Shown one piece after another: positions 1,231 to 60,310 of a stretch of 64,000 bases of DNA. Source of the stretch: an uncultured bacterium (GTDB lineage: Bacteria; Patescibacteriota; Minisyncoccia; Phycocordibacterales; UBA11359); contig CAIKZC010000010.1 in NCBI GenBank assembly GCA_903831815.1, positions 162,474-226,473 of the forward strand, written 5' to 3'. The first letter of the stretch is position 1; the number at the start of each line of letters is the position of its first letter. The translations under genes and the position numbers were made by a program. The notes below the pieces were generated by a model. The model was not told the origin of the DNA, searched no databases, and saw nothing but the letters and a program-made list of their open reading frames with translations.

Positions 1231-1322
1231 GGCTGTGGATATGTCTGTTTGACATGTTAACTAATCCAAAGTACCCTATAACTCGGGTTCTAGTCACTGG
1301 TCTTTTTTATTGAGGAGACGAC

Positions 1323-1658
1323 ATGCGCCAAGTGCGTAAGCCGAAGCGAAGTGCAAACGTTTGCGCCACCAAGCAACATGCTCTGGTGGAGTTTGAGTGT
1401 CCTCGCTGTCACCAGCTTCATATGGAGTTGTGGTCGAAGCAGGACAAAATCACTTCATGCACCACTCCCGGCAAAACGGAGGGGAAGAATTTCTATGTCC
1501 CGCGAATCGGCAGGGGGTCGCGTCTCGTGAGAACGTACGCCGTTACCTCCAATATCGTTGAGCTGAAGGAAGGAAAACGCGCGCCAATCATGAAGATCGG
1601 TTCTACATTGAGACGTGCGCCGCAGAGTCGAATCTTTGCCGCCAAGATGGCTGCGTGA
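1323..1658 (+). CDS. Hypothetical small Cys/His-containing protein (zinc-ribbon-like CPRC...C), in a GC-rich cassette
   Basis: 111-aa ORF with RBS-like GGAGA 7 nt upstream. It sits in a ~53% GC segment (1231-1768) between AT-rich uvrC and ddl and is followed by a strong terminator. The segment could alternatively be a structured RNA. Confidence 0.35.
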   Translation: MRQVRKPKRSANVCATKQHALVEFECPRCHQLHMELWSKQDKITSCTTPGKTEGKNFYVPRIGRGSRLVRTYAVTSNIVELKEGKRAPIMKIGSTLRRAPQSRIFAAKMAA

Positions 1659-1693
1659 TCGACTGATCAAGGGTTAAGGAAACAGTACACAAA

Positions 1694-1730
1694 GGGGGTC
1701 GAGCTAAACAGCTCGATCCCCGATTTTTTT
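1694..1730 (+). terminator. Rho-independent terminator (11-bp GC-rich stem GGGGGTCGAGC/GCTCGATCCCC, loop TAAACA, T7 run)
   Basis: Seen directly in the sequence: gggggtcgagctaaacagctcgatccccgattttttt. Confidence 0.8.
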
Positions 1731-1756
1731 ATAATGAAATCGTGTTGCTCTTGTAG

Positions 1757-1762
1757 TATAAT
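1757..1762 (+). promoter_or_regulatory. -10 box TATAAT exactly 6 nt upstream of the ddl ATG (leaderless-type promoter)
   Basis: tagTATAATatttctATG. The same TATAAT-N6-ATG geometry recurs at 52456, 59036 and 60313. Confidence 0.5.
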
Positions 1763-1768
1763 ATTTCT

Positions 1769-2743
1769 ATGTCGCATAAAAATAGAGTGGCGGTGTTGCG
1801 TGGCGGACCATCGAGTGAATACGATGTGTCGCTCATTACTGGCGCGGCCGTTCTTGAACACTTGCCAGAAAAATATAAGGCTTTAGATATTTTAATTGAT
1901 AAACAGGGTGTGTGGCATCGTGAAGGTGTGCCAAAGACACCGCAAAAAGCGCTTCATGACGTTGATGTGGTTATAAATGCCATGCATGGAGAGTTTGGTG
2001 AAGACGGAAAGGTGCAACAAATTTTGGATGGACTTAAAGTGAAATATACCGGGTCGAGAGCTTTAGCCTCGGCTCTAGGAATGAATAAAATGCTGGCCAA
2101 GAAAGCTTTTATCGGAGCCGGTATCTTAACTCCGGAATTTTTGTATGTGGAAGTAGGGGATGATCTCATTGCTGACGCGGAAGAGATCATGAAAAATTTT
2201 TCTTTGCCGGTTGTGATAAAGCCTAATGCCGCCGGCTCGTCGGTCGGTGTCAGTATTGCAAAAGATTTCGATAGCCTCCTATACGGCCTCCGTAAAGCTT
2301 CCAAGATCAGCAAAAAAATATTGATCGAAGAGTTCATTAAGGGCAGGGAAGCGACATGTGGCGTGATCGAAAAATTTCGCAATCAGGATGTTTACAGTTT
2401 GTTGCCTGTTGAGATAACTCCGCAAGAGGATCAATCTTTTTTTGATTTCGAATCTAAATATAGTGAAACCAAAGGTGCCAAAGAAACTTGTCCGGCCAAT
2501 TTTGACCATAAAATCACGGAGGCTATTCAGAATATGGCCATTGCCGCGCACCAGGTGCTTGGACTGCGTCATTATTCTCGCTCTGATTTTATTGTTTCAC
2601 CGAACGGCATCTATATTTTAGAAATAAATTCTTTGCCAGGATTGACTCCTCAATCGCTTTTGCCAAAATCGCTGGTCGCAGTCGGCAGCTCATTTCCGCA
2701 ATTTTTAGAACATTTGGTTGAATTGGCTCTTTCCGGCAAATAA
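1769..2743 (+). CDS. ddl: D-alanine--D-alanine ligase (ATP-grasp)
   Basis: The N-terminus RVAVLRGGPSSEYDVSL and the C-terminus SRSDFIVSPNGIYILEINSLPGLTPQSL match Ddl signature regions. Length is 324 aa. Confidence 0.9.
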   Translation: MSHKNRVAVLRGGPSSEYDVSLITGAAVLEHLPEKYKALDILIDKQGVWHREGVPKTPQKALHDVDVVINAMHGEFGEDGKVQQILDGLKVKYTGSRALASALGMNKMLAKKAFIGAGILTPEFLYVEVGDDLIADAEEIMKNFSLPVVIKPNAAGSSVGVSIAKDFDSLLYGLRKASKISKKILIEEFIKGREATCGVIEKFRNQDVYSLLPVEITPQEDQSFFDFESKYSETKGAKETCPANFDHKITEAIQNMAIAAHQVLGLRHYSRSDFIVSPNGIYILEINSLPGLTPQSLLPKSLVAVGSSFPQFLEHLVELALSGK

Positions 2744-2753
2744 TTAAAAATTT

Positions 2754-3449: not shown

Positions 3450-3453
3450 AGTG

Positions 3454-3527: not shown

Positions 3528-3626
3528 TTATATATTGTAGTCCTTATTATTGAACACTTTTTCGGTCGTTGCAACATTTCTAAAAATGTGCGATACTCAT
3601 TTGTACGCGTTTTTGAAGTATATTTT

Positions 3627-3699: not shown

Positions 3700-3702
3700 C
3701 TA

Positions 3703-3731: not shown

Positions 3732-3764
3732 AATGTTGTTAGGGTATGTTACCCTGATTGCTAT

Positions 3765-3824
3765 CCTGAAAGGTAAGCAAGTTCATTTCAAATGTTCCCT
3801 GAAAGGGGAACGCATCTGAAAGGA
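3765..3824 (+). repeat. Three direct copies of CTGAAAGG in the 5' leader of the 3832 ORF
   Basis: cctgaaaggt (3765), ccctgaaagggg (3797) and tctgaaaggatg (3816). The last overlaps the RBS AAAGGA. Confidence 0.5.
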
Positions 3825-3831
3825 TGTGTGT

Positions 3832-4557
3832 ATGCTCCGTGTAAATTATGTGTATGGCCTTATGTTTGAGTGGGGCAAGGAATGGAGTCACGGTCGCGAG
3901 CCAGATCGACTGAGGAAAATTTTCCACATGATGGTCGAAGGTCGTTCGTGCGCAGATCTCTTCAAGGCAGTTCTCGAAGATTTGGAGGGTAATGGGTTCG
4001 AACGTTTTAGTCCACTCCAGATCGGTGCAGTGATAGCCTCTGTTTTCATTCTGTTTCCGAATGACGAGACTGATCGTGCTCACTTTGGAAGGGAGCTCGA
4101 GGTAGCTATCACTACCTCTAGTGAATCCGAACCAATTGAGTTTTTTCAGGGTTGTGTGGTTGGTCTCTTTAAGGCGACGGTTACTCTGAGGGAACTGAAA
4201 GATTCCAGCGAGTTTCTGGAAACCAATTTGTGGAGACTTGCTCTTCTTGCTGCAGAAAAGGCTGATTTCCACAAGAGTCAGCCCCACAGCTTCAACCACG
4301 GCGGTATGCTATCGAATGTCATCGGAGATTACTTGCGGAGCGATGATGATGAGACGCGTTGGGAGTATTTGGAGAAAGCGCTCAGTTCTTTCGCCTTAAG
4401 TCTTCCCAAGAAGAAACGTCTGGTCGAGTCTTATTCTGCTCATGGCACAACACGCTTTCTTGTCGGCGAGATGACTTACAAAATCTTTGGTCGTCGGGCC
4501 GACGAAACTGCTAGGACGGCAATGGTCTGCGATTACTTGAAACATAGGAAGCCGTAG
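3832..4557 (+). CDS. Hypothetical protein (GC-rich, ~50% GC); alternative GTG start at 3826
   Basis: Long ORF with RBS AAAGGA 8 nt before the ATG and a terminator downstream. No recognisable domain. The antisense ORF 3739..4299 is shorter and lacks signals. Confidence 0.6.
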   Translation: MLRVNYVYGLMFEWGKEWSHGREPDRLRKIFHMMVEGRSCADLFKAVLEDLEGNGFERFSPLQIGAVIASVFILFPNDETDRAHFGRELEVAITTSSESEPIEFFQGCVVGLFKATVTLRELKDSSEFLETNLWRLALLAAEKADFHKSQPHSFNHGGMLSNVIGDYLRSDDDETRWEYLEKALSSFALSLPKKKRLVESYSAHGTTRFLVGEMTYKIFGRRADETARTAMVCDYLKHRKP

Positions 4558-4583: not shown

Positions 4584-4619
4584 CCCCGGGGTATCAATCA
4601 CCCCAGGGTTTTTCTTTTT
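4584..4619 (+). terminator. Rho-independent terminator (CCCCGGGG...CCCCAGGG hairpin + TTTTTCTTTTT)
   Basis: ccccggggtatcaatcaccccagggtttttcttttt. Confidence 0.65.
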
Positions 4620-4645
4620 AAAAATTTTTTTCAATTTAACAATAT

Positions 4646-4686
4646 CACCCACAAATTGTTTCCAAAATCCGATCGGGTAGTCCACA
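4646..4686 (+). repeat. Conserved box copy A: CACCCACAAATTGTTTCCAAAATCCGATCGGGTAGTCCAC (24-nt core identical to 8007-8030; contains CCGATCGG palindrome)
   Basis: Exact 24-mer gtttccaaaatccgatcgggtagt is shared with copy B. Both copies follow a GC hairpin terminator plus an AT-rich spacer and precede a gene. Confidence 0.7.
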
Positions 4687-4747: not shown

Positions 4748-7345
4748 ATGGAGAAAATGGATAAAAGTGTTGAAAATCTAAGTGCACAGGTGGATGCTGT
4801 GTCTGAATATGCTGATCAAGAAATATCTCTACCTTCTCGTAAAGATGAATCATTAGCCATGTCTCTTGAGGAACTTAAGGCGAGATACCCTGTCCGCTAT
4901 GAGATGTATCTGAAAGTTTTAAGGGCACAACGTGGTGGAGAAATAACCGAAGAAGAAAAGGAAGATATGGTTGAAACTTTAAGAGCCTTAAATAATCTTG
5001 ATAAGTATATCGAACGACATAAAAGCAACAGTGGAGAGAGAGTTTTGAGAGATAAGCAATTCGATGTTTTTGAAGATATTAGAGATTTTTTGGAAAAAGG
5101 TGGAAAAGAGGGATACATAAAATTACCAACTGGTTCCGGTAAAACGGTGATATTCACGTTGCTTGCAGATGTGCTGGATATGAAAACACTAGTCGTTGTA
5201 CCAAAGAAAAATTTGGTTACCCAGACTAATGAACGAACTGAGCAATTTACTGGTAAGAAAGCTGGAGCGGTTTATCAAGATGAAAAAGTGTTTGATAAAC
5301 AACAGACTACCACCACTTATCAATCACTTGTTAGACAAATCGAAAGCGGCAACATGAAGCCAGAAGATTATAAACTTCTAATACTGGATGAAGCACATAA
5401 AGCTTTGGGTGATAAAAGTCTCGAAACAATTGAATTGTTTAATGATGCAATAAAGCTTGGCTTTACTGCCACACCTAAATATTCTGAGAATAGGAGTGTA
5501 TCCAATATGTTAGAAACTGAGATTCACAGCGTGACAGTAGTTGAAGCTGTAGAAGACGGCATGATTAGTCCATTTTCTGTGATTGTAGCCAAGACAAAAG
5601 TAGATATTAGCAGTGTTGAGGTGAATACTGTTGGTGAATATAGTCAGGCTGACCTTGAAAAGGCTGTCAACATTGCGAGCCGAAATAAAGCGGCAGTGGA
5701 TATTTATAAAAAAATGTTTAATGGTCAGCTCGCGCTCGCATATTGTTGTGGAGTTCAGCATGCCGCAGATGTTGCTAAAGAATTTAACGATGCGGGTATA
5801 CCAGCTATAATGATGAGTGGTGATCAGGATTTATCAGAAAAAGAAAAAAGCGATATTTTTGAAAAGTTTTCACGTGGTGAAATCAAGGTTATTACTAACG
5901 CCGATATTTTGATTGAGGGTTTTGACGAGAAAAGAGTTGGTCTCTGTTTGAATTTGCGACCGACTTTGTCACCGGTTGTTGCTGAACAGCGTGGTGGTAG
6001 AGTTTTGAGATTGAATAAGGAAGAAGACCCAAAAAAGCACGCCTACGTAATTGATTTTCTTGATGAAAATCAAAACAAAGATTTTCATCCTATTACGTTT
6101 GCGGAAATTGCTGGCGCATCGGTTGTATATGCAAAGACCCAAGATGGAAAAGATATTCCTGACAGAAATACGGAAAAAGCGGATGTAGCCAATATAAAAG
6201 TTGAAGGTCTAGAAATAGTTGTTGATTCCGAGGAAGTTATGCGCATGGTTAGAGAAATGGAGTCTCAAGCTGCCAAATTACCTCCCGAAAATTGGATCAA
6301 ATTAAATGATTTTATTGATAAAACCGCAGACACTTTTATTTTGCCGAAAGCAGAAGTGAGAAGAATGGTAGCAGAAAACAAACTTGATAAACCAGATAGT
6401 TTTGGAAGATTTAAAAGCGTTGATGGTTATTTGGGTCAATATATAAGTCCAGAACTTCAGAATGGGATTCTTGATGAATTAGGTAGTGGATTTAAAGGTC
6501 TACCCAAAGATTATCTTACTTTAGGAGCAATGAAGCACGAACTTCAATTGACGTGGACACCGACTTTTAAACGATTGTTTGAAAAAGCAAAGGAGTTGGT
6601 ACCCGATGGAGTTGTTAATCGCAGAGGTCAAGTTTATCTTAGCAAAAAATTCTTTGAAACACTCCGTGACTTGTCCAGTTCTGAAATTGCACCAGAGGAT
6701 TGGGTAACTGAAAGTGCTTTAAAAAAGATGGGTCATAACACAGCTCTTTCAGATTTATTAGATGACCTAAAAGAAGAAATGCCTGATGAAATTAAACAAC
6801 TTCGTGGAAAGAAACATGGACCTATTCCACATTATTCGCCGGCATTTGTGGCGGAATTTTATAAACGAGCAGAAGTTCTCAAACAAAACGAAGCAATTAG
6901 ATTGCAAAAGGAAAAGGAGTTGGAAGTGGCACCTAAAGATTGGTTGGATCTTAGTGATATTAGGATTGCAACAGGTCAGTCGGCAAAAGATCTGGAAGAT
7001 GCCTATAACAAATATGCTTCCGCTAATTCAAATGATAATCTGTTAGGACGACATCGTCCGAGTGCGGACAAAAAATATGAAAATTTCGTTGATCTAAGTG
7101 CTGTAGAAAGAGTTTTTGAGTCGATACTCAATAAAAAAACTTTATGGGAGAGATCCGTTGCACCTGAAGGTTGGTTGACTGCTCAGGCGATTGCGGATAG
7201 GAAGGGAATTTCACTTGAAGAAATTTATAAAAATGTAGTGGCTCTAAAACCTTCAGGAGATAAAATGATTAAGATTTACAAAGACAAGGACGGAAAGAAC
7301 AAATTCTTTTATCACCCTGATTTCGTAAAGAAGCTTATTCCGTAA
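4748..7345 (+). CDS. Superfamily-2 DEAH-box helicase (ResIII / type III restriction-res-like N-terminal ATPase + helicase C domain) with ~450-aa C-terminal extension of unknown function
   Basis: Walker A LPTGSGKT, motif II LILDEAH, motif III GFTATP, motif VI QRGGRVLR. No recognisable domains in residues ~430-865. Confidence 0.8.
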   Translation: MEKMDKSVENLSAQVDAVSEYADQEISLPSRKDESLAMSLEELKARYPVRYEMYLKVLRAQRGGEITEEEKEDMVETLRALNNLDKYIERHKSNSGERVLRDKQFDVFEDIRDFLEKGGKEGYIKLPTGSGKTVIFTLLADVLDMKTLVVVPKKNLVTQTNERTEQFTGKKAGAVYQDEKVFDKQQTTTTYQSLVRQIESGNMKPEDYKLLILDEAHKALGDKSLETIELFNDAIKLGFTATPKYSENRSVSNMLETEIHSVTVVEAVEDGMISPFSVIVAKTKVDISSVEVNTVGEYSQADLEKAVNIASRNKAAVDIYKKMFNGQLALAYCCGVQHAADVAKEFNDAGIPAIMMSGDQDLSEKEKSDIFEKFSRGEIKVITNADILIEGFDEKRVGLCLNLRPTLSPVVAEQRGGRVLRLNKEEDPKKHAYVIDFLDENQNKDFHPITFAEIAGASVVYAKTQDGKDIPDRNTEKADVANIKVEGLEIVVDSEEVMRMVREMESQAAKLPPENWIKLNDFIDKTADTFILPKAEVRRMVAENKLDKPDSFGRFKSVDGYLGQYISPELQNGILDELGSGFKGLPKDYLTLGAMKHELQLTWTPTFKRLFEKAKELVPDGVVNRRGQVYLSKKFFETLRDLSSSEIAPEDWVTESALKKMGHNTALSDLLDDLKEEMPDEIKQLRGKKHGPIPHYSPAFVAEFYKRAEVLKQNEAIRLQKEKELEVAPKDWLDLSDIRIATGQSAKDLEDAYNKYASANSNDNLLGRHRPSADKKYENFVDLSAVERVFESILNKKTLWERSVAPEGWLTAQAIADRKGISLEEIYKNVVALKPSGDKMIKIYKDKDGKNKFFYHPDFVKKLIP

Positions 7346-7424
7346 TTCTGGTAATTTCGAAATATCTGCAAAGCAAAATAAACGGCTAATTTAAGCTATA
7401 TTTTGATATTTTTAAAAAAATTGC

Positions 7425-7452
7425 TTGACAATTTCTGTGGATATGCTATGCT
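7425..7452 (+). promoter_or_regulatory. Putative sigma70-like promoter TTGACA-N16-TATGCT preceded by an A/T-rich UP-like tract
   Basis: tttaaaaaaattgcTTGACAatttctgtggatatgcTATGCT. Confidence 0.4.
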
Positions 7453-7457
7453 TATAT

Positions 7458-7714
7458 CAGCAAGTAAGGGTAAGACCAGCAGGAAGCGTTTGGCTTCCGG
7501 GTATTATTCAGAAGAGAGTGCGGGTTCCTCAGGTCAGCGGAACTGCCAGCACTATTGTTCCTTGAGGTTTGTAGTCTGACAAATCGCCCCTCATATGTTT
7601 CATTCGGAAGTTGCGATGGATTGATCATCGAATGAACGAGGTTTGGCGAGGATTGCGTTTGCGAATCCATGCCTACTGCAGAGTTGCTTGATTGTATGCA
7701 GTAGCAATCTTTTT
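7458..7714 (+). ncRNA. Candidate small structured RNA (~255 nt, ~48% GC) bounded by promoter and terminator; identity unknown
   Basis: No convincing ORF; only a 72-aa antisense ORF. Several internal hairpins, and the segment ends in the terminator at 7673-7714. SRP-like fragments (CAGGUCAGCGGAA) are present but do not match a known consensus. Confidence 0.3.
7673..7714 (+). terminator. Rho-independent terminator (8-bp stem CTACTGCA/TGCAGTAG, 16-nt loop, CAATCTTTTT)
   Basis: ctactgcagagttgcttgattgtatgcagtagcaatcttttt. Confidence 0.55.
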
Positions 7715-7886
7715 AAACGTTAGGTCCAATCTAGCAAAATTTCTCAGAACCACCACGATTTGGAGAACATCGTTGAATGGTTTGAGAGATCAGGACATTA
7801 TTGTCTGGTTTCCAAAATCTCTGTGGCCTGTGAGTCTTTGATCTTCAACTCACAAAAAACCACGATCTGATCGTATGAAGAATCAA

Positions 7887-7920
7887 CCCCCGGATACATC
7901 ACGTGCCGGGGATTTTCTTT
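7887..7920 (+). terminator. Rho-independent terminator (CCCCCGG...CCGGGG stem + ATTTTCTTT), structurally analogous to 4584-4619
   Basis: cccccggatacatcacgtgccggggattttcttt. Confidence 0.55.
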
Positions 7921-7990
7921 ATATAATTAAATTACTATACTGACGATATTTCCTGAAGATTAATTAGTCAAAATATTTCTTAAAGTTTCA

Positions 7991-8034
7991 CACTCCTCCA
8001 CAAACCGTTTCCAAAATCCGATCGGGTAGTTCAC
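7991..8034 (+). repeat. Conserved box copy B: CACTCCTCCACAAACCGTTTCCAAAATCCGATCGGGTAGTTCAC; abuts a TTGACA hexamer
   Basis: The 24-nt core (8007-8030) is identical to 4658-4681. A third partial copy GTTTCCAAAATC lies at 7808-7819. Confidence 0.7.
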
Positions 8035-8361
8035 TTGACACAACCACTGTGTATCGCAATGTAAATCAACCTCAGTAGATTCGTCTAAATACCGTGGTGA
8101 AATAATTAATCTAACCAGTATTATGAAGAATCTTAAACTATAGAGTTTAAGGATAAGAAAGATACTGGCGATGATTTTGGAGGAATAACGCTTATGTTGG
8201 CGGCAAGTATTTTACTTATCTATCTTTATTTCCAAGCAAAAAAGTTGATGCAAGAGAAATAAAATGCATTCTGCTACGGCTATCTAAGTTAGAAAGAAAG
8301 TACAAAGAAACAAAATTGTCAGATCGAAATCTGGCACATAAAATTTGAACTGGGGGAGATC

Positions 8362-9057
8362 ATGTCAGTAGCGGTGTCGATAGGTGATATAGAGTTGGAG
8401 ACTTCGTTCGGGTATCCGCTTGGATACGCAGTCAAACCAATGGAGGAACAGCTTTCGCTTCTGCGTCAACATCTCGGTTTGTCTTTTCAAGGTGATTTGG
8501 CCTCAATCACGAAAGACCGTTTTTTTTACCCCATCGAAGGCCCTTTCTTCGTTCCGAAGTGGCAGGCCGTCGGTGGAACTTATGAAAAAGCCTTCAGTAG
8601 GGTGCTCGACGCAATCGGTCGCCAGCGCTCATTTGTCAATAATTGTCCCTATTCTATGGGGCTCAATCATCTTCGCCTTACTAGGCGGGCAGTGGATTAT
8701 CATGAAATGCTTGCTCGGCGGTCGGGAGACAGCCATATTCTCGTGGTGCCGGCGCAGTTTGGTCAATATCATGCAGGTCACAGTGCGTCAGAAGCGAACC
8801 GGGTGATGCCTTTCAGAGAGTTCCCACTCGATCCATACTTAGCTGCGGTTATGCTTCTTACGCATCCGGAACGATTCAAAAACGAGGATGATCTGCGAGT
8901 TGATTGTCCCGGCTGCGAATATGATTATCCGGATGGGTCCGGGCCGTGGTCTGAAGTTCTCTGCTTTCTTAAGTTTGGCGATCAGCTTTGTCTCAGTCAT
9001 AGGTATAAAGACGATCCGCTAGGTTGCTTCGGGTCCGCTTCCGGTTTCATCGTGTAG
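8362..9057 (+). CDS. Hypothetical protein (GC-rich, ~52% GC)
   Basis: 231-aa ORF followed by the terminator at 9117-9158. No recognised domain. The alternative-frame ORF 8420..8806 is shorter. Confidence 0.55.
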   Translation: MSVAVSIGDIELETSFGYPLGYAVKPMEEQLSLLRQHLGLSFQGDLASITKDRFFYPIEGPFFVPKWQAVGGTYEKAFSRVLDAIGRQRSFVNNCPYSMGLNHLRLTRRAVDYHEMLARRSGDSHILVVPAQFGQYHAGHSASEANRVMPFREFPLDPYLAAVMLLTHPERFKNEDDLRVDCPGCEYDYPDGSGPWSEVLCFLKFGDQLCLSHRYKDDPLGCFGSASGFIV

Positions 9058-9116
9058 CAATCTTGGGTTTTGAACTGCCGAACATTTGTTGAATCGATCG
9101 GCAAGTTCCGCCCATC

Positions 9117-9158
9117 GCCGGCGCAGATCGCAGTGATGCGATTTGCTCCGGTTTTTTA
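9117..9158 (+). terminator. Rho-independent terminator (long imperfect GC hairpin + TTTTTT)
   Basis: gccggcgcagatcgcagtgatgcgatttgctccggtttttt. Confidence 0.6.
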
Positions 9159-9555
9159 TTGCAATATTTTTTTAGTCAAAACAAAAACCCTTTGCAGGGT
9201 TTCTGTTTGGAACAGATATATCATTGTGGGGTTACTAAAATAGTTAAAGTGGTGCTCTATTTTTATTCCAAGGAATAAATTAAGTTGAGCTCCTATTATT
9301 TTTCAAAAGTGACCCAGACATGCAATACTGTTGCCTGTGTTAAGTATACGGGCAGGTGCTTTAAATGTACCTTATCATTCTGGACAAGTTGTTTATAAAA
9401 AGTGTATGGATAAAATATTTGTTGAAATTTCCTTAAAACAAAGCATTTATATCGATATTTTTAAAATAAAAATTGTGTATAAATAAAATTAAATAAATTT
9501 GACAGTATTTTGGTTTGTAATATGCGGTGTTTGTTGACGGCTGAAACAAGTCAGA

Positions 9556-21834: not shown

Positions 21835-21927
21835 AAGTGACTATTTAGGCAACCTTGACTTTCCGTGTCGTTATAATACGATGTAGCAGGACCGTTCTAT
21901 GGTTTTTACAGAAAGGATGAGTGTTCT

Positions 21928-22218: not shown

Positions 22219-22321
22219 GCTTTTGGTTCTTCGGCTCACATAATAGTATTTTGGGAGAACCAAGAATCGAAAGCTTCACCTATCCTGGGTGCGGCTTTTT
22301 TTTGGTAATTAAATTATAAAA

Positions 22322-39200: not shown

Positions 39201-42200
39201 TTGGCACAAGTTCAATATCCGGCACAAGTGATCCTGTAACTCCTGCCAGAGCTCCCGATGCTCCATCAATAATTTCCGTAACGAGAGGCGATGGAAATGT
39301 GACAGTAACTTTTTCAACGACAACATTTAACGGCGGTTCAAATATTTTGTATTACACCGTGACTTCTAATGACGGACACACTGCGGTTGGCGGTGATTCA
39401 CCGTTAACTGTTTTATATCTCAATGATGGAACACCATATACTTTCACCGTCACCGCAACAAATAACGTCGGCACAAGTTCGCCTTCGGCAACAAGTGATT
39501 CCATAACTCCGGCCAGAGTTCCCGATGCTCCATCAATAATTTCCGTAACTAGAGGTGATGGAAATGTGACGATTACTTTTTCAACGACAACATATAATGG
39601 TGGTTCAAATATTTCATATTATTCAATCACATCAAGCGATGGACAGATTACGACTGGTGGCACTTCGCCGATTATATTTAGAAATCTTAATAATGGCACA
39701 CCATACACTTTCACGATCACCGCTACAAACGACGTTGGCACTAGCACTTCCGTAGGAGTAAGTGATACTGTAATTCCGGCTAGAGTTCCAGATGCTACGA
39801 TTATTGGATCGGCAACGAGAGGTGTTAATGAAGCCACAATTAATTTTTCAACGACGACATATAATGGCGGTTTAAGCATTTTGTATTACACCGTGACAAC
39901 AAACGACGGATTGATTTCAGTTAGTGGCGGTACGTCGCCACTCACAATCAAAGGTCTTACAAATGGAGTAAATTATACTTTTACCGTCACGGCTACAAAT
40001 GCAGTTGGCACTAGCTCTGCATCATTTGCTTCAAATGGAGTTACGCCTGCCGATGTACCTGCCGCTCCAACGATTACCTCTATCTTCGGAGGTATCAATA
40101 GAGCGACGATTACTTTTTCAACTACGACTAGTAACGGCTCAACAATTTTGTATTACACCGTCACTTCAAATGATGGATTGCATACTATTACCAGTGGCAA
40201 TTCACCGGTTACATTTAATGATTTAACTAACGGCACCACCTATACATTTACTGTTACTGCAACCAATGGTGTCGGTACAAGTTCTTCTTCCAGTGTTAGT
40301 GATCCAATCATGCCTGCCGGCGTACCTGATGCTCCAATAAATGTTTTCGCCACTAGAGATGATGGTAAAGCGTTGATTACTTTCACAAAACAGAATGATA
40401 ACGGTTCGACGACTTTGTATTACACCGCCACATCAAATGACGGATCGAAATTCGGCACGAGCACTTCAAATTCAATTCTGGTTACAGGATTGGCAAACGG
40501 CACAATTTACTTTTTCACAGTAACCGCAACTAACGGAGTAGGTACCAGTTCCATTTCAACTGCTAGCAATTTTGTCATTCCGGCAACCACTCCAAATTCT
40601 CCATTGATTGGATCGGTCATAAGAGGTAACGGCGAAGCGACAATTAATTTTTCATATCCAAATGATAATGGTTCAACGATTCTTTATTACACCGTCACTT
40701 CAAACGATGGTCTACATATCGCGACTGGTGGCGCTTCACCTCTTGTGGTTACCGGTCTCACTAATGGTGCAACTTACACTTTTACAGTAACCGCAACCAA
40801 TGACGTCGGCACAAGTTCTCCTTCCGGCACAAGTGATTCTGTCACTCCTGCAACTACTGCGAGCGCACCGACAAATATTACTGCCACTGGTGGTACTCAC
40901 GAAGCAACGATTTATTTTACACCGACATTACCGGCCAATAACGGAGGGTCAAATATTATCCACTACACTGTTACTTCGAATGATGGATTGCATTCCGCTA
41001 CAGGTGGTACTTCGCCGATTACCGTGTTCGGTCTCACTGACGGCGTCACTTATACTTTCACAGTTACTGCAACCAATGACGTAGGTACAAGTTCTCCATC
41101 GGCGACAAGTAACTCGGTTGTTCCGGCCGACGTCCCAGACGCACCAACTTATGTAAACGCAATTGGCGGTAATGGAGAAGCTACAATTACTTTTACGTAT
41201 CCAAATAACAATGGTTCTGTTATTACTTACTACACCGTCACTTCAAATGATGGATTGCACACCGCAACCGGTGGCGCTTCACCTATTACTATTACCGGGC
41301 TTTCCAATAATACAACTTACACATTTACAGTTACCGCTACTAACGCTGCAGGAACAAGCACTCCATCTGGAACAAGTAATTCTGTTGTTCCTTCCGCTGT
41401 TCCTGATGCGCCGTCAAATGTGGTGGCCGTTCGTGGTAGGGGTGAAGCCACGATTTCCTTTACGTATCCAAACAATAACGGTTCGATCATTACCTACTAC
41501 ACCGTCACTTCAAACGATGGACAGACTGCGACGGGTGGTACGTCGCCAATAACCGTTAAAGGTTTGACGAATGGTTTGAATTATACTTTTACTGTCACCG
41601 CCACAAACGCCAACGGTACGAGTTCTGCTTCAATCTCAAGCGATGCAGTGATGCCTGCGACCTATCCTAATGCGCCGGGAAATCTTGCCGCAACACTTGG
41701 AAACGGTAGTGCTAATTTGACTTGGTCGGCTCCATTTAACGGCGGTTCAGCTATAACTCTTTATACCGTGACATCAAACACCGGAGGTCATACGGCTACA
41801 ACGACCGGTACATCGGTTACCGTTTATGGGTTAACGAATGGCATGCCATATACTTTTACGGTTACAGCAAGCAATGATATGGGCATGAGCACGTCTTCCA
41901 ACACAAGCAATTCGGTGATTCCGGCTAATGTTCCGGGTGCGCCAGGAAACCTTACAACATTAGTTTTGGATAGCAGTATAAGTTTGTCTTGGTCCGCCCC
42001 AACGTCGACCGGAGGATCGGATGTCACGGATTATATCGTTCAATATAAATTAACAAACAATGGAACTTGGTCTGCTTTTGATGATGGCGTTGGAACCAAT
42101 CTGGTAACGACTGTTACAAATCTATCAAATAATAGTTCTTATGATTTTCGTATTTTGGCTAAAAATGCGGCCGGTCAGAGTTTTCCGTCTAATATAGCAA

Positions 42201-45427: not shown

Positions 45428-46525
45428 ATGTCATTATCCATTGGAATTGTCGGACTCCCAAACGTCGGTAAATCGACGCTTTTTAACGCACTGACACGCA
45501 AAAGCGTGCTGGCGGCTAACTATCCTTTTGCCACCATTGACCCGTCTGTGGGCGTTGTGGCCGTGCCTGATGAGCGTTTGTGGAAACTTAGCACTTTTTC
45601 CAAGTCGGCTAAAACTATTCCGGCCGCAATCGAGTTCGTGGATATTGCCGGTCTTGTTAAAGGTGCCTCGGAAGGCGAGGGACTTGGTAATCAATTTTTG
45701 ACCAACATTCGCGAGACTGACGCTATTGCGCAAGTTGTGCGTATTTTTGAAGATGAAAATATTATTCATGTCACCAACAAGATTGATCCTCTTGGTGACA
45801 TTGAAACGATTAACCTCGAGCTCATAATGGCTGATTTACAGACTGTCACCAAGCGTTTGCAAAATGTGGGACGCGATGTGAAGCGGGGCGATAAAACGGC
45901 AGTGATCGAGAATGATTTGCTGACGCGAGTAGATACTGCTTTGAAAGCCGGAAAACTGGCTTCAACTATTGTGCCGAACGAATTTGAATTACCGCTTTTG
46001 AAATCTTTGCATTTACTGACCTCAAAACCGATTTTGTATGTGCTCAACAAAAAAGCCGGTGGTAAAAATTTGGATCAAGTAAAAGATGAACGCTGGACCA
46101 AACTCATGCAATTTATGAAAGAAACCAATTCTTCATATGTTGTTGTGGATGCGCGAATTGAGGAAGAATTAAAGGATTTGGAATCGGCCGACAAAGTGGC
46201 TTTTCGGGCGGAGCTTGGCGGAGATGATGATGGCGTAAACAGTTTGATCCGCACCAGTTACGATATGCTCGGTTTGATCATGTATTTTACGACAGGGGAG
46301 GACGAGACTCGAGCTTGGACTATTCATCGCGGTTGGACTGCCCCGGAGGCAGGCACGGCTATTCACGGTGACTTTAAGGAAAAATTTGTGCGCGCCGAAG
46401 TCATTGAGTGGGATAAACTGCTCGGTGCCGGCTCCTACGTCGCCGCTCGCGACCGCGGTCTCGTCCGTACCGAAGGTAAGGAATACATCGTCAAAGACGG
46501 TGATGTGATTGAGTTTAAGATTTAG
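45428..46525 (+). CDS. ychF: Ribosome-binding ATPase YchF (Obg-family GTPase fold) with C-terminal TGS domain
   Basis: IGIVGLPNVGKSTLFNALT P-loop, ...NYPFATIDP..., TGS-like C-terminus; 365 aa. Confidence 0.9.
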   Translation: MSLSIGIVGLPNVGKSTLFNALTRKSVLAANYPFATIDPSVGVVAVPDERLWKLSTFSKSAKTIPAAIEFVDIAGLVKGASEGEGLGNQFLTNIRETDAIAQVVRIFEDENIIHVTNKIDPLGDIETINLELIMADLQTVTKRLQNVGRDVKRGDKTAVIENDLLTRVDTALKAGKLASTIVPNEFELPLLKSLHLLTSKPILYVLNKKAGGKNLDQVKDERWTKLMQFMKETNSSYVVVDARIEEELKDLESADKVAFRAELGGDDDGVNSLIRTSYDMLGLIMYFTTGEDETRAWTIHRGWTAPEAGTAIHGDFKEKFVRAEVIEWDKLLGAGSYVAARDRGLVRTEGKEYIVKDGDVIEFKI

Positions 46526-46529: not shown

Positions 46530-46558
46530 TTGACGACAATTAAGAAAAATGCTATTAT
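46530..46558 (+). promoter_or_regulatory. Near-consensus sigma70-like promoter TTGACG-N17-TATTAT for the GC-rich small ORF
   Basis: cTTGACGacaattaagaaaaatgcTATTATac. Confidence 0.5.
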
Positions 46559-46631: not shown

Positions 46632-46889
46632 ATGTTAGCTACCAGTCATGGTCCAAGTCCGCTTAGGGACTTGTGGGTTAGGGCACCCGGAGATCAGGGT
46701 GCCTACTACGAGAATAGGGAAACCCTCGGAGTGCGAAGCCTCTTTCATTGGCATTGCGGAAGCATGATGAATCGGGTCGTTGAGTTCCAGCGGGATGACA
46801 CTGGCGCGATTATCAGCCGGAAATGCAATAGTTGGATTTGCCCCGTCTGCAAGGTTCGGTATTATCGCACCGATCAGTATTGCGAATAG
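46632..46889 (+). CDS. Hypothetical small Cys/His-rich protein (HWHC...CNSWICPVC; zinc-binding-like), GC-rich cassette
   Basis: 85-aa ORF with RBS GAAGGG, a promoter upstream and a terminator downstream; ~52% GC. Confidence 0.45.
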   Translation: MLATSHGPSPLRDLWVRAPGDQGAYYENRETLGVRSLFHWHCGSMMNRVVEFQRDDTGAIISRKCNSWICPVCKVRYYRTDQYCE

Positions 46890-46918: not shown

Positions 46919-46957
46919 CCCCATCAATCAGTGAAAGCTGGCGGATGGGGTTTTTGT
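46919..46957 (+). terminator. Rho-independent terminator (CCCCATC...GATGGGG + TTTTTGTTTT)
   Basis: ccccatcaatcagtgaaagctggcggatggggtttttgtttt. Confidence 0.65.
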
Positions 46958-47281
46958 TTTGTGCTATTTTCTAAAAGTTTAAATTTAAAAAAAAGACGCC
47001 ATCGACACATTGCTCCTGCAATGCAACGTGACGTCTCTGGTTCGCCATGGTGGTCACATAGACCCCATGGCTAGGAAGTGGACAGGTAGCGCATGGATCC
47101 TCCTTTCCGGAACATGGACCAATGGTGTCCGAAGGTGCAAGAGCAACTCAAGCACTTTACTTATTCCGCTTAATAAATTAACATAATATTTTTGAAAATG
47201 AAAGTTGTTAAGGAGTTTCATTTATAGGCTTTTTTGTGTTATAATACAGCGATTATCAACTAGTCGTAGTTTTTATTTACT

Positions 47282-55880: not shown

Positions 55881-56027
55881 AGCAAGCAATATTAAAAAGT
55901 TAAAAAGACGCAAGAGCAAGGTGTCTCGAGGGCACAGGTAAATTTCCTGCTGGAAATTTCCTTCACACTCGGCCCGTCGGCCTCCGTGAGTCCCTCACAA
56001 CAGCCTTTTTGTTTGCTTTATAATTAT

Positions 56028-56056
56028 TTGACTATTACACATAAGTATGATATATT
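56028..56056 (+). promoter_or_regulatory. Near-consensus sigma70-like promoter TTGACT-N17-TATATT
   Basis: tTTGACTattacacataagtatgaTATATTac, ~80 nt upstream of the 56139 ORF. Confidence 0.5.
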
Positions 56057-56138
56057 ACTAGTTAGTTGTACTTTGAACGAAACTAGACCGCGCTGTTAAG
56101 CCCTTTTTAACCCCACAGGGGTATGGAAAGGGGCCCAT

Positions 56139-56990
56139 ATGGCTCTCAGAGATTACGGTTACGATCCCTATGCGGACACTGGTGGCCTTTACGATGATCG
56201 TGCTTTACCAAGAGCGAAGCACATCTTGAGGTTTCGGTTGGAGAAGAATTTCCTGACCGGCCAGATGGTTTGGCGTGTGTTTGTTGGTGGTACCTTGTAT
56301 GAGGTGTCGCTTACGGCCAAGAATCAGCCAACTTCGAACGACGAGGTTTGGCTTTGCCAGGAAGCCGAAAACGCCGGACAGACGGAGACCGACAGAAGGT
56401 TGGTGCCCGTCGAGCCCATGAGTCTGCTCTTTAACGGGCAACAGGCATTTCGGTTCACGGCTGATTTGAAGCGACTTTTTGCGGGTAAACCCTGCATGAA
56501 GGCGTATCTTCCGCACCACGATCTCAATATATGGTGTGTTCCGGACAAGGATGGAGAATCTCAGCCGACCGACGGACACGAGTTCTGGTTCTGTCAGTTT
56601 ACGCGCGTTGTGGTGCTTGACTACGACAAGGGCTATCTTCTCGTGGCAGTGAAACTGCTTCGGGAAGACACCGAGGCTCGCGACCGGCATTTGGCTAAAG
56701 AAGCTGAGCTGGAAGTGATTCGTCAGCAGAACGAGAAGGATGCCGCGACTCGGGCTGAGGCCAGTAGCAAGGAGTGGGCGATCATGCGGGCGAAATGGCA
56801 ACAGGAAAGTGTTAGACAGTCCGCTGTCGACGTCGCCAAGGAGGAACTGGCGAGACAGTTCCCGACAATTGCCGCAAAGCAACAGCAGAGCAGGCTTCAG
56901 GAACGGTTGATGGGCGTGTCGACAAGTGTCGTTAGCACATTGCCGTCTCCTGACCGCAAACGCAGGAAAACGGTTATGAGGTCTTGGTAG
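56139..56990 (+). CDS. Hypothetical protein with C-terminal coiled-coil/charged region (GC-rich, ~52% GC)
   Basis: 283-aa ORF with a promoter, RBS GGAAAGGGG and a downstream terminator, all on the + strand. The antisense ORF 56205..57092 is judged to be a GC artefact. Confidence 0.55.
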   Translation: MALRDYGYDPYADTGGLYDDRALPRAKHILRFRLEKNFLTGQMVWRVFVGGTLYEVSLTAKNQPTSNDEVWLCQEAENAGQTETDRRLVPVEPMSLLFNGQQAFRFTADLKRLFAGKPCMKAYLPHHDLNIWCVPDKDGESQPTDGHEFWFCQFTRVVVLDYDKGYLLVAVKLLREDTEARDRHLAKEAELEVIRQQNEKDAATRAEASSKEWAIMRAKWQQESVRQSAVDVAKEELARQFPTIAAKQQQSRLQERLMGVSTSVVSTLPSPDRKRRKTVMRSW

Positions 56991-57040
56991 ACGTGACACA
57001 CCCCAATCTTCCAGGGATATAATTTGGATGAAATACAATG

Positions 57041-57075
57041 GCCCGGACTCACTGAGAGTTCGGGCTTCTCTTTTT
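57041..57075 (+). terminator. Rho-independent terminator (GCCCGGACTC/GAGTTCGGGC stem + TTCTCTTTTT)
   Basis: gcccggactcactgagagttcgggcttctcttttt. Confidence 0.7.
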
Positions 57076-57144
57076 ATATATTTTTTATACACACATTTAT
57101 ATTACGGTTGGGTTGTAAGTTGTGACATATGATAGTATTAATTT

Positions 57145-57579
57145 ATGATTGATGAAAAAACTTTCAGTAACGATGTGTCATTTCAAGGTGTAAAAGGATT
57201 GATTTTTATAGGAGATAGGATAATTGTTTTTCGTAGAGATGAAAAAACGAAATTATTTCCTTTACAAGTCGATTTGCCTGGAGGTGGCAGGGAAGGCACT
57301 GAATCGCCATTTGAAACTTTTAAAAGAGAAACAAAAGAAGAGTTTGGTTTAAATTTACTTGAGAAGGATGTTTGTTATTCGAAAAAGTATAATAGTCACC
57401 TATTTCCAGGTGAGTTTTCGTATTTTATTGTAACTAAGCCTTCAAAAATTAAAGAACAAGATATTGTTTTTGGAGATGAGGGCTTGGAGTATTTTTTAAT
57501 AAATCCGCAGGATTTTATTAATTTAGTAGATGGTGTTAAGTATCAACAAGAACGAGTAGCAAACTATTTGAGGCTATAG
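57145..57579 (+). CDS. Nudix hydrolase
   Basis: The Nudix box GGREGTESPFETFKRETKEEFGL fits Gx5Ex7REUxEExGU. Confidence 0.8.
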   Translation: MIDEKTFSNDVSFQGVKGLIFIGDRIIVFRRDEKTKLFPLQVDLPGGGREGTESPFETFKRETKEEFGLNLLEKDVCYSKKYNSHLFPGEFSYFIVTKPSKIKEQDIVFGDEGLEYFLINPQDFINLVDGVKYQQERVANYLRL

Positions 57580-57616
57580 CGGGACTTATTAAACCGCGAT
57601 ATAATGAAGGATAACT

Positions 57617-58483: not shown

Positions 58484-58516
58484 GTTGTAAATTATTAAAA
58501 TTTTTAATTTAAAAAT

Positions 58517-59035
58517 ATGAATTTTTTTATCGCAAGTTTTGTACAGTATCAGGTCGTTTTTCTCCAACTTATTTTAGCTTTACTTCTCGGAATGGTACTT
58601 GGTGTACAACGTACTCTTTCTGGTAAAAATGCTGGGATGCGCACATATTCTCTGGTTTCGATGGGTTGTGCTTTGCTTGTGATTATTGCTCAAACTGTTA
58701 TTGCCACATATCCGACAAAAATAAATTTTGATCCGCTCTCACTTGCCGGCAGCGTGATGCAAGGTATCGGTTTTCTCGGCGCAGGTCTCATCATTTTTCA
58801 TGGCACCAAGGTCAATGGCTTGACCACCGCTGCCGGCATCTGGATCTCGGCCGCCATCGGTATTGCCGTCGGTTATGAAATGTATGCTATCGCTATTTTT
58901 GCCACACTTTTAACTTTGATCGTTTTCACTTTGCTCTGGACTTTTGAAAGCAAGGTTCGCACACGTTATGCTCACGATTCCATTTTTGATGATGCCGATA
59001 GTGAAGAAGATTCACAAATAATCAAGAAAATATAG
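58517..59035 (+). CDS. MgtC/SapB family membrane protein
   Basis: LLGMVLGVQRTLSGKNAGMRTYSLVSMGCALLVI matches the MgtC N-terminal signature. Confidence 0.8.
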   Translation: MNFFIASFVQYQVVFLQLILALLLGMVLGVQRTLSGKNAGMRTYSLVSMGCALLVIIAQTVIATYPTKINFDPLSLAGSVMQGIGFLGAGLIIFHGTKVNGLTTAAGIWISAAIGIAVGYEMYAIAIFATLLTLIVFTLLWTFESKVRTRYAHDSIFDDADSEEDSQIIKKI

Positions 59036-59041
59036 TATAAT
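59036..59041 (+). promoter_or_regulatory. -10 box TATAAT exactly 6 nt upstream of the ATG at 59048
   Basis: atagTATAATcgctgtATG. Confidence 0.5.
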
Positions 59042-59047
59042 CGCTGT

Positions 59048-59887
59048 ATGGCAGGAAATAATAGTAACGAAAACAAACGAGCTTACAATCCAAAACGTAG
59101 TGCCGATTGGAATTATGGCGGCAAAAATTGGAAACTTTCTCGATCGAAGATAGACTTTTTTAAAGAATGTCCACGTTGTTTTTATATTGATAACAAATAC
59201 GGCGTGGCTCGTCCAAAAATGCCGGCTTTTACTTTGAATGTGGCGGTTGACGCTTTGCTTAAAAAAGAATTCGATACTCATCGTGTTGGTCAAACCGCTC
59301 ATCCACTCATGAAGAAGTATGGTGTTGAGGCAATTCCTTTTTCATATCCCGAAATTGATGCTTGGCGCGAAAATTTTGTTGGCATTCAATATCGTCACGA
59401 GGAGACGGGAATGCTCATAACCGGTGCCATTGATGATGTTTGGGTCAATCCGGCAGGGGAACTCATTGTGGTTGATTACAAGGCCACTTCCAAGGACGGC
59501 AAGTTGGATTCGTTGGATGACAGCAGTTGGAAAGAGCAATACCAGCGACAACTCGAGGTCTATCAATGGCTCCTTCGTCAAAAAGGTTTTAAAGTTTCTT
59601 CGACCGGATATTTTGTGTATGTAAACGGTCAAAAAGATCGCGCAGCTTTTGATGGTAAACTTGAATTTGAGATCACTCTCATTCCTCACACAGGCGACGA
59701 CAGTTGGGTAGAAAAAACTCTTTTAAATATTAAAAAGTGCTTGGACGACAAACGTTGTCCTCTGCCTTCCAAAACTTGCGAATTTTGCGCGTATCGTTTG
59801 GCTATGCATGATGCGTTAGTAACCGCAAAAGGCGAAGGCGAGACCAAAACTTCCGGAAAAGATCCCGAAAAGAAAACTCTATTTTAA
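59048..59887 (+). CDS. PD-(D/E)XK nuclease superfamily protein with Cys cluster (Cas4/RecB-nuclease-like fold)
   Basis: AIDDVWVNPAGELIVVDYK gives D...E-x-K. Cys residues in CPRC (N-terminal) and C-x5-C-x6-C-x2-C (C-terminal) are reminiscent of the Cas4/DUF83 Fe-S arrangement. Confidence 0.5.
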   Translation: MAGNNSNENKRAYNPKRSADWNYGGKNWKLSRSKIDFFKECPRCFYIDNKYGVARPKMPAFTLNVAVDALLKKEFDTHRVGQTAHPLMKKYGVEAIPFSYPEIDAWRENFVGIQYRHEETGMLITGAIDDVWVNPAGELIVVDYKATSKDGKLDSLDDSSWKEQYQRQLEVYQWLLRQKGFKVSSTGYFVYVNGQKDRAAFDGKLEFEITLIPHTGDDSWVEKTLLNIKKCLDDKRCPLPSKTCEFCAYRLAMHDALVTAKGEGETKTSGKDPEKKTLF

Positions 59888-59991
59888 CTGAAGACTTGTG
59901 GATAACTAGCTATTGTTTGTTAGTTCAATGAGTATAGTATTAAATCCAGATTGTTTAAACTTCCTGGTCCCTTTTTTTGGGGGTAACTATC

Positions 59992-60252
59992 ATGCCGGGT
60001 CCGAAACTGACTGAGAATGAACTTCATGAACACCTCAGCGAATTTCGTGTAAAGGCTTTTTGCCTGCGCAGCACTGACTTGTACAACGCTGTTAACCCTT
60101 CCGGTCCTTGGATTCCGCGGGATACTGCGTTGACGGATGAGCAGAAAAATCGGCTGATCATCTGTTTCATCCAGTTTCGCGGTTTGAAAGGCTTCGCTGA
60201 GAGATTGGCCGAAGAATCGGTTTCTCGGCCAGAATTAGAGGCCGTTGGGTAG
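59992..60252 (+). CDS. Hypothetical small protein (GC-rich cassette); alternative TTG start 59977
   Basis: 86-aa ORF at ~50% GC, followed by a terminator. Confidence 0.4.
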   Translation: MPGPKLTENELHEHLSEFRVKAFCLRSTDLYNAVNPSGPWIPRDTALTDEQKNRLIICFIQFRGLKGFAERLAEESVSRPELEAVG

Positions 60253-60282
60253 TGGCAGTGTGTCGCAGCGTCGAAGTTATGG

Positions 60283-60310
60283 TGGGTGCTCTCGGCCCAC
60301 CTCTTTTTTT
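60283..60310 (+). terminator. Rho-independent terminator (GTGGGT...GCCCAC + CTCTTTTTTT)
   Basis: gtgggtgctctcggcccacctcttttttt. Confidence 0.65.

Follow-up and report, generated by a model that had tools for sequence, protein, structure and literature searches.

The 64,000-nucleotide window analysed here (NCBI GenBank assembly GCA_903831815.1, contig CAIKZC010000010.1, positions 162,474 to 226,473 of the forward strand) comes from an uncultured bacterium and carries, scattered at seven places (c1 to c7), eight GC-rich open reading frames (ORFs), one place holding a convergent pair (c4a and c4b). Each GC-rich 'cassette' is essentially the ORF alone. In the two families that can be traced through other genomes, those of c3 and c6, the GC excess travels with the gene family whatever genome the gene resides in and bears no fingerprint of a fresh import from a single high-GC donor. 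As judged from its homologues, c3 is a member, solo within the window, of a family of variable proteins associated with diversity-generating retroelements (DGRs) in bacteria of the candidate phyla radiation (CPR). The overall picture is one of heterogeneous accessory genes that occupy variable slots and whose GC content is maintained through a pool of exchanged genes, and we give this picture an even chance of being correct.

GC excess within the limits of the reading frames

The compositional baseline is provided by 35 other conventional genes of the window, which have a GC content of 0.400 (standard deviation 0.028) and a GC content at third codon positions (GC3) of 0.367 (standard deviation 0.045); the whole window has 42.7% GC. 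Measured against these genes, the GC3 values of the eight ORFs give z scores of 2.2-5.8, with c4a (z 2.2) and c4b being weak outliers only. A preliminary description of this DNA, made from its letters alone, had reported seven cassettes of 50-55% GC on a background of ~38%. All eight ORFs do lie above the baseline of 0.40, but c4a, c4b and c2 reach only 0.44-0.48, and the background was measured at 40%.

The GC content of the eight ORFs exceeds, by 0.03-0.09, that expected from their own amino acids encoded with host codon usage. In the proteins arginine is doubled, cysteine quadrupled and histidine raised, and isoleucine, lysine, asparagine and threonine are reduced. Among synonymous codons GAG, AAG, CAG and CTG become more frequent, as do CGG, AGG, GGG and CCC. 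Adenine at third positions (A3) falls from 0.27 in the background to 0.12-0.16 in six of the eight cassettes and guanine rises from 0.18 to 0.27-0.38, with third-position thymine (T3) remaining near background in the window genes c2 and c3. The GC excess is a property of reading frames, in which a shift to codons ending in G or C is combined with more Arg, Cys and His. It ends at the start and stop codons, and the adjoining promoters, untranslated regions (UTRs) and spacers have a GC content of 0.32-0.41, apart from three short exceptions, the 5'UTR of c6 (0.49) and, downstream of c5 (0.46) and c7 (0.58), the spacers that hold their terminators.

Two explanations of this composition differ in whether transfer is needed. 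In the first, every cassette is a recent, independent arrival from a high-GC donor, such as an episymbiont's host, and its composition still awaits amelioration to that of the recipient. The atypical codon usage is in keeping with such an import, yet the excess stops at the ORF ends and no foreign composition is found in the flanks or UTRs. The second involves no transfer and invokes a gene-specific force acting in situ, which could be GC-biased gene conversion, selection on mRNA stability or structure, or avoidance of an AU-specific RNase or toxin. This force would account for boundaries that are sharp at the ORF ends and for the concurrent rise of the host-rare codons CGG, AGG, GGG and CCC, which argues against translational selection. 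However, no common sequence or structural feature was found among the eight mRNAs. An elevated GC content is also seen in ychF, the gene of the housekeeping GTPase YchF (45428-46525; GC 0.47, GC3 0.48), and its orthologues in two related contigs (L095 and L096) likewise stand above their neighbours. The GC excess in this lineage is therefore not limited to orphan genes, as a force acting in situ would allow.

The c3 and c6 families in other genomes

Homologues of c3 comprise 22 proteins of ~290 aa that cover 95-100% of its length at 33-45% identity (E 1e-16 to 1e-49). The family is represented at a minimum of 497 homologous metagenome loci (80 of which were fetched, chosen by similarity to a CPR copy) and in only two of 2.9 million viral contigs. 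Its last ~45 residues, to which the C-terminal ~45 aa of c3 correspond, are hypervariable even among close relatives and terminate in a conserved GSASGF. In contig L092, the homologue adjoins an Avd gene and a reverse transcriptase (RT), and its variable region (VR, 5063-5192) differs from a template repeat (TR, 5594-5723) by 13 mismatches, 13 of 13 at TR adenines; this restriction to adenines is the signature of a DGR. A TR-like repeat of the 3' end of the gene is present in 33 of the 80 loci, in most of which all or nearly all mismatches lie at TR adenines, and 27 loci also encode an RT. In another DGR locus (L131) a second c3-family paralogue (6924-7805) lies directly 3' of the first; its 3' end coincides with a repeat (7631-7803) whose mismatches are mostly off adenines.

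About half of the c3-family loci with 6-kb flanks are solo. In the case of c3 itself, 8800-9160 is not repeated within the 64-kb window, the L092 RT and Avd find nothing in it by tblastn beyond E ~1 at best, and Pfam scans of its larger ORFs detect no RVT domain. c3 is also without the ~60-aa N-terminal extension of its homologues. Its cluster at 90% identity is a single sequence though seen on 11-13 contigs from many samples; indirectly, this makes c3 an apparently static copy, with no sign of ongoing diversification of its VR. The best structural matches in the PDB of a c3 fold model (pLDDT 86) are snake venom C-type-lectin-like proteins, which fall short of significance (E 0.4, probability 0.25), and a c3 profile found nothing among PDB sequences. 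c3 is presumably a ligand-binding protein.

Sixty-three loci of the c3 family have 1 kb or more of flanking sequence and were used to assess its composition. On average the GC content of the gene is 0.166 above that of its flanks, the difference being greater than 0.05 at 61 loci and negative at none. A profile averaged over 57 loci runs at 0.55-0.63 inside the ORF and 0.37-0.45 outside it, with steps at the start and stop codons, and among 341 other ORFs of such loci just 7 reach an excess of 0.10. In 24 complete DGR loci the target has a GC content of 0.593 (GC3 0.75), as against 0.414 for the RT, 0.412 for Avd and 0.418 for the rest of the locus. Solo and DGR-linked copies are equally GC-rich, and the GC content of the gene rises with that of its host (slope 0.49, r 0.53, p 2e-5). 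Those c6 homologues for which DNA is available are likewise GC islands, of 0.53 and 0.52 in contigs (L009 and L010) of 0.41 and 0.44. Accessory genes of unusual composition are already known, as are the targets of DGRs in the CPR. For a GC excess so sharp and family-wide in DGR targets beside host-like RT and Avd genes, we found no description in the DGR literature searched for GC terms.

These data bear directly on recent import. The preliminary description had itself named equally GC-rich homologues as an observation that would speak against it, and such homologues are found in AT-rich genomes at 61 of 63 c3 loci and two of two c6 loci; all 61 would need to be recent imports. In addition, the RT, Avd and remainder of the 24 DGR loci are host-like and the target alone is GC-rich. 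Since the TR must match the VR, importing the target alone would be awkward. The only named homologue from outside the CPR, a c3-family gene in a Dehalococcoidales metagenome-assembled genome, has a GC content of 0.45, and no homologue named from the Actinobacteria or another high-GC taxon was found. More favourable to import is the GC content of c3-family genes (0.57-0.64), which matches that of two GC-rich contigs in which the gene is compositionally native (L123, 0.63; L159, 0.59), as is a slope of gene on host GC below 1. That gene GC tracks host GC with a constant offset, and that A3 and T3 are symmetrically halved relative to the adjacent RT, would suit a force acting in situ.

A further explanation is linked to the retroelement itself. 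As the RT mutates adenines, DGR targets might have been purged of adenine on the coding strand, and the remaining cassettes would then be former or remote targets. Such a process could be read into the membership of c3 in a DGR family and into the loss of A3 from six window cassettes with T3 unchanged in c2 and c3. However, across the 24 DGR loci A3 and T3 outside the VR are 0.10 and 0.16 in the target versus 0.22 and 0.31 in the RT, and a halving of both shows that the shift is a general one from AT to GC rather than adenine-specific. Nor is there a TR/VR-like repeat for any cassette in the window, or an RT or Avd gene, and the equal GC richness of solo and DGR-linked copies also counts against it. 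Adenine-specific depletion as the cause of the GC excess is largely refuted by the joint halving, and we regard this explanation as very improbable.

An exchange between genomes can be followed in one pair of contigs from the same groundwater sample, H41 of Hainich. L123 has a uniform GC content of 57-70%, and its genes run in the order FtsW-PrmC-(c3-family gene)-NTP-transferase-RF-1; L140 has 40-50% GC (45% for the contig) and contains RT, Avd and TR. The two have 1091 bp in common at 96.7% identity (L123 5759-6849; L140 5760-6849) and nothing else. This stretch extends from ~60 nt upstream of the ORF to 156 nt beyond it. Within it 624 nt, the VR among them, are identical, the 36 differences being confined to the first ~400 nt and a hairpin downstream. 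Of the mismatches between VR and TR in L140, 7 of 23 are off adenines, which suggests replacement of the allele by recombination. The pair thus appears to record a recent transfer or recombination of a single-gene unit across genomes of very different GC content. Near-identity of this kind is what recent import predicts, and a real exchange is difficult to accommodate in an explanation that does without transfer.

The c6 family is smaller, with 15 representative homologues among 1.84 billion cluster representatives. Its members have the motifs EVWLCxE, FWxCxF and REDxEA, a coiled coil and often a GGGC-basic tail. The model of c6 (pLDDT 86) comprises an all-beta tandem OB-like domain (27-176), a coiled-coil helix of ~80 residues (178-259) and a basic tail. 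Its best structural matches, none of which is significant, are OB-fold nucleic-acid binders, namely the cold-shock/S1 domains of RNase R (E 5e-3), HIN-200, LEF-3 and single-stranded DNA-binding proteins, and c6 might possibly, on this slight indication from the model, bind nucleic acids.

Genes, slots and spacers of the housekeeping backbone

The neighbours of the cassettes are housekeeping genes, including those for UvrC, Ddl, G6PD, YchF, LeuRS, YceG, MnmA and UDG. Proteins of uncultured bacteria match MnmA at 84-90% identity, and the single named one belongs to Candidatus Taylorbacteria; LeuRS finds nothing above 61%, in distant genomes only, among GTDB species representatives. The genome is that of a CPR relative of the Paceibacteria, similar to Ca. 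Taylorbacteria. A search of genome contigs for relatives by means of the helicase gene found none, and the distant genomes found through LeuRS (L011, L043, L045 and L084) have no comparable GC islands. Three contigs (L094, L095 and L096) retain the gene order YchF...LeuRS-sigma4/HARE-DUF8128-YceG-MnmA-(slot)-ATP-cone/Mrr-MgtC-PD-(D/E)XK-(slot)-UDG and are otherwise syntenic with the window, and tblastn detected no homologue of c5 or c6 in any of them. Between MnmA and ATP-cone, the window has c6 and a NUDIX gene, L094 a 73-aa ORF and a GC-rich ORF of 220-230 aa (0.55, GC3 0.69 versus 0.45), L095 a single ORF of host-like composition and L096 an empty slot (54 bp). Sequence comparison showed the GC-rich ORF of L094 to be unrelated to both c6 and c2. 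The NUDIX gene beside c6 (57145-57579) has the lowest GC content of the window (0.32) and none of the three relatives has it at this place; L096 carries a NUDIX domain as part of a LeuRS fusion instead (L096 3601-6501, 966 aa).

The spacer that follows mnmA (55881-56060) contains a hairpin, GGAAATTTCCTGCTGGAAATTTCC, and the promoter TTGACT-17-TATATT, and is kept in L095 with a different gene downstream. As this promoter is present in L095 without c6, it is resident DNA and was not carried in by an imported cassette. The part from 55881 to 56027 corresponds to L095 11105-11230 and includes a perfect hairpin, GGAAATTTCC-TGCT-GGAAATTTCC, the two relatives being ~73% identical in DNA; the role of the element may be that of a terminator, a small RNA or a binding site for a protein. 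In the second slot, between PD-(D/E)XK and UDG, c7 has weak positional homologues in L094 (78 aa, GC 0.51) and L096 (71 aa), which share with it the motif AF..N..YN..P...D..LT.EQK..L, and none in L095. c7 is probably a small gene that evolves rapidly and has long occupied its slot. A turnover of accessory genes in the spacers of a syntenic housekeeping backbone is supported by these observations, which cover the stretch holding c5 to c7, and the cassettes are neither one family nor the outcome of one event. The absence of c5 and c6 from close relatives fits a recent import and is at odds with a force acting in situ. Against import are the resident promoter of c6, the positional conservation of c7, and the fact that c6 (0.54) and the adjacent NUDIX gene (0.32) fall in the same indel relative to the relatives.

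All eight cassette ORFs are genuine protein genes that belong to the flexible gene set and are transcribed separately. Each has a purine-rich Shine-Dalgarno site, and the corresponding signals are collected in Table 1. The eight exact proteins occur as gene calls in public collections, each on 7-13 contigs (c1 and c2, the latter as P0169, on 7 each), and all are singletons when clustered at 90% identity. No significant match to Pfam, PHROG, NCBIfam or PADLOC was obtained for any of them, and Rfam identifies in the window only two tRNAs (tRNA-Val and tRNA-Ala), both at the gathering threshold and at E <= 1. c4b finds only itself among 5.8 billion proteins and has no PDB match, and searches of phages, plasmids, viral contigs and the PDB with c2 gave nothing. 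c1, c2, c4a, c4b and c5 appear to be lineage-restricted ORFans.

Much of the preliminary description is upheld by these results. Its self-contained coding units of atypical codon usage are borne out by the Shine-Dalgarno sites, the terminators and the GC3 scores, and its statement that the products lack recognisable domains agrees with the database searches. Terminators are present at all eight ORFs, but the promoters that it assigned to most cassettes are less secure. The promoter scan made no call for c1, c2 or c7, that of c6 is resident, and promoter-like sites are not clearly enriched in the window (30 versus 22.4 +/- 4.0 in shuffled sequence). The term 'orphan' is incorrect for c3, with its several hundred loci, for c6, with its 15 representatives, and for c7, with its positional homologues. 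The cassettes do not form one gene family, as the alternative proposal of a family of small selfish or effector genes would have it, since the eight proteins show no mutual similarity (all-versus-all BLASTP E > 0.3). Its caution that GC richness inflates antisense ORFs was justified: those opposite c2 (186 aa, 3739-4299) and c6 (295 aa, 56205-57092) are spurious by-products of GC richness, and the strand of c3 and c6 is settled because their homologues align on that frame. For c2, the start at ATG 3832 is preferred to the GTG at 3826 that gave 243 aa.

It might be argued that the cassettes are artefacts, either chimeras assembled from a contaminant or non-coding RNA genes that carry ORFs by chance. 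RNA genes are often the GC-rich segments of AT-rich genomes, and long ORFs occur on both strands of c2 and c6. However, the neighbours of c3, the sole cassette to be looked up in this way, are identical in at least ten independent assemblies from different samples, so that c3 at least is no assembly chimera. The c3 and c6 families conserve invariant Trp, Cys and Pro residues at the protein level and their fold models are confident; Shine-Dalgarno sites are present and no cassette matches Rfam even at the relaxed threshold. Structured non-coding RNA genes are rejected on the grounds of the Rfam result and the protein conservation of c3 and c6. For these two genes the artefact reading is already refuted, and for the cassettes as a whole it is scarcely credible.

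Table 1. Positions of the cassette ORFs and of the expression signals beside them (window coordinates)
Feature	Position	Strand	Description
c1	1323-1658	+	111-aa Cys-containing basic protein; GC 0.54, GC3 0.62; GGAG Shine-Dalgarno 1314-1317
c2	3832-4557	+	241 aa from ATG 3832; GC 0.48, GC3 0.51
c3	8362-9057	+	231 aa; GC 0.50, GC3 0.50; C-terminus GSASGF
c4a	21928-22218	+	96 aa (88 aa with alternative start, P0004); GC 0.44, GC3 0.46
c4b	22391-23395	-	334 aa, convergent with c4a; AAGGAGG Shine-Dalgarno; GC 0.46, GC3 0.48
c5	46632-46889	+	85-aa Cys/His-rich protein; GC 0.52, GC3 0.58
c6	56139-56990	+	283 aa; GC 0.54, GC3 0.62
c7	59992-60252	+	86 aa; GC 0.51, GC3 0.54
Promoter-like site 5' of c3	8316-8344	+	TTGTCA-17-TAAAAT; promoter scan
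Promoter-like site 5' of c4a	21855-21882	+	TTGACT-16-TACGAT; promoter scan
Promoter-like site 5' of c5	46530-46558	+	TTGACG-17-TATTAT (with TG); promoter scan
Promoter-like site 5' of c6	56028-56056	+	TTGACT-17-TATATT; promoter scan
Terminator after c1	1694-1731	+	12-bp stem and T run; terminator scan
Terminator after c2	4588-4614	+	terminator scan
Terminator after c3	9123-9156	+	terminator scan
Terminator after c4a	22277-22291	+	terminator scan
Terminator after c4b	22346-22332	-	terminator scan
Hairpin and T run after c5	46919-46960	+	seen by eye, not called by the scan
Terminator after c6	57040-57076	+	terminator scan
Terminator after c7	60281-60301	+	terminator scan

Several further features of the window lie close to the cassettes. 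A 65-nt direct repeat (4621-4685 and 7970-8034, 77% identity) is the only intergenic repeat of the window and does not bracket the cassettes. It includes a near-identical core of 36 nt, CCACAAAyyGTTTCCAAAATCCGATCGGGTAGTyCAC, with the palindrome CCGATCGG inside. Each copy lies ~40-70 nt 3' of a terminator, the repeat is found only in contigs of the same species, and it might represent an operator or mark where an earlier insert ended. The second copy follows a unit (7425-7920) in the 1-kb spacer upstream of c3 that has a promoter (TTGACA-16-TATGCT, with TG) and a terminator hairpin (~7886-7915), contains no ORF longer than 72 aa and has a fold z score of -1.8; it may specify a non-coding RNA of ~460 nt or be what is left of a cassette. 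Downstream of c5, a small convergent unit on the minus strand (46985-47211) comprises a promoter (TTAACA-17-TATTAT), an AGGAGG, a 7-codon ORF (MRYLSTS) and a terminator. The same slot in L094 (3718-3946) is occupied by a segment of 62-66% GC with a Shine-Dalgarno-led, Arg-rich ORF of 25 aa and a terminator, and these two post-ychF minus-strand units have no sequence homology to each other. A free-standing gene for an 88-aa GIY-YIG nuclease domain (24063-24329) is flanked by zwf and a cytidylyltransferase gene. A giant ORF of 5194 aa (27233-42817) contains the most extensive GC-rich stretch of the window, which reaches 0.60 and has its source in GGN codons (GC2, at second codon positions, 0.62; GC3 0.31). 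The Gly-rich middle of this ORF (~29.0-38.5 kb) has a 9-nt periodicity and super-repeats of ~200 nt, and its end (38.8-41.7 kb) contains about eleven repeats of 267 nt (89 aa).

Exchange, import or local force, and comparison with known systems

In the proposed mechanism, the cassettes would form a pool of single-gene units that are exchanged or recombined between genomes of differing GC content, too frequently for them ever to reach the composition of any one host. This effect may be strengthened by a gene-specific force that favours GC, be it biased conversion where loci recombine or selection acting on the mRNA, and the resident promoters and spacers would stay AT-rich throughout. A number of observations weigh against this model of exchange. 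A gene GC that rises with host GC would also be expected from ordinary amelioration of imported genes. The choice of c3-family loci by similarity to a CPR copy biases the sample towards CPR hosts, and the pattern in the c6 family comes from two loci. L123 and L140 are a single pair, and the L123 copy is present on one contig only, where a mis-join is possible. c7 shows weak homology (31% identity), which tblastn misses at E < 0.1. For c1, c2, c4a, c4b and c5, five genes out of eight, no family could be traced, and family-level behaviour is extrapolated to them; among the five, the deep homology search covered c4b, and c1, c2, c4a and c5 have no match in profile libraries or 90% clusters. Finally, no mobility gene, repeat or target-site duplication was found at the cassette ends in the window.

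Recent, independent import of every cassette appears unlikely in the light of the family data, although it has to be taken seriously, and plain recent import may be the origin of the untraceable ORFans. The repeated lateral acquisition from a high-GC donor suggested by the preliminary description is partly sustained, by the absence of c5 and c6 from relatives and by the exchange between L123 and L140, but no donor taxon was identified. A force acting in situ without any transfer is, in our judgement, less likely again. A more novel reading, that GC richness confined to the ORF is a conserved and actively maintained hallmark of exchangeable CPR accessory genes, led by the DGR variable-protein family, is tentative, and we hold it to be somewhat doubtful. 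If true, it would mean a gene-specific process as yet undescribed in DGR targets, be it near-continuous exchange, possibly between episymbiont and host, or biased conversion, and it would offer an easy means, based on composition, of finding those interaction genes of CPR bacteria that evolve fast. These bacteria have tiny genomes and depend on other cells, and the genes that vary among close relatives are the best candidates for interaction with hosts or phages; a sharp, ORF-limited GC excess can pick out such genes. The routine reading of GC-atypical genes as recently imported is undermined, and the question posed is whether exchange, biased conversion or mRNA selection keeps these frames GC-rich. 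Were the 63%-GC contig type to be that of the physical host, the pattern would show directly that genes pass between symbiont and host.

Several known systems resemble the cassettes in part. Phage morons are single ORFs with their own promoter and terminator and a deviating GC content, inserted between conserved genes. Like them, the cassettes are single ORFs of odd composition amid conserved neighbours, with a terminator after and a promoter-like site before. Unlike morons, they are located in a bacterial housekeeping backbone, without PHROG matches or phage genes in the window, and the promoter of c6 is resident. With ORFans and islets acquired by horizontal gene transfer the cassettes share atypical GC3 and codon usage, a patchy distribution and few or no homologues. 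However, the composition of the c3 family persists in dozens of hosts beside host-like RT and Avd genes, a family-wide persistence that is not predicted by ordinary import and amelioration. Integron cassettes are likewise single, promoter-proximal ORFs in a variable slot, as in the promoter slot after mnmA that differs among relatives. In contrast to them, the cassettes described here have their own terminators and are spread over 59 kb, with no shared end repeats or attC-like repeats at their ends and no integrase domain in Pfam scans of the larger ORFs of the window.

The closest parallel concerns c3 and the targets of DGRs, for which Mtd and TvpA are the prototypes. The copy in the window differs from these in having no TR, RT or Avd within 64 kb, no N-terminal ~60 aa and no variants across samples. 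In the CPR-restricted DGR clade 2, the targets are without recognisable domains (Roux et al. 2021, PMC8144416). Like these CPR targets, c3 has neither a transmembrane nor a Pfam domain, and it is related to proteins whose C-terminal ~130 nt constitute a VR.

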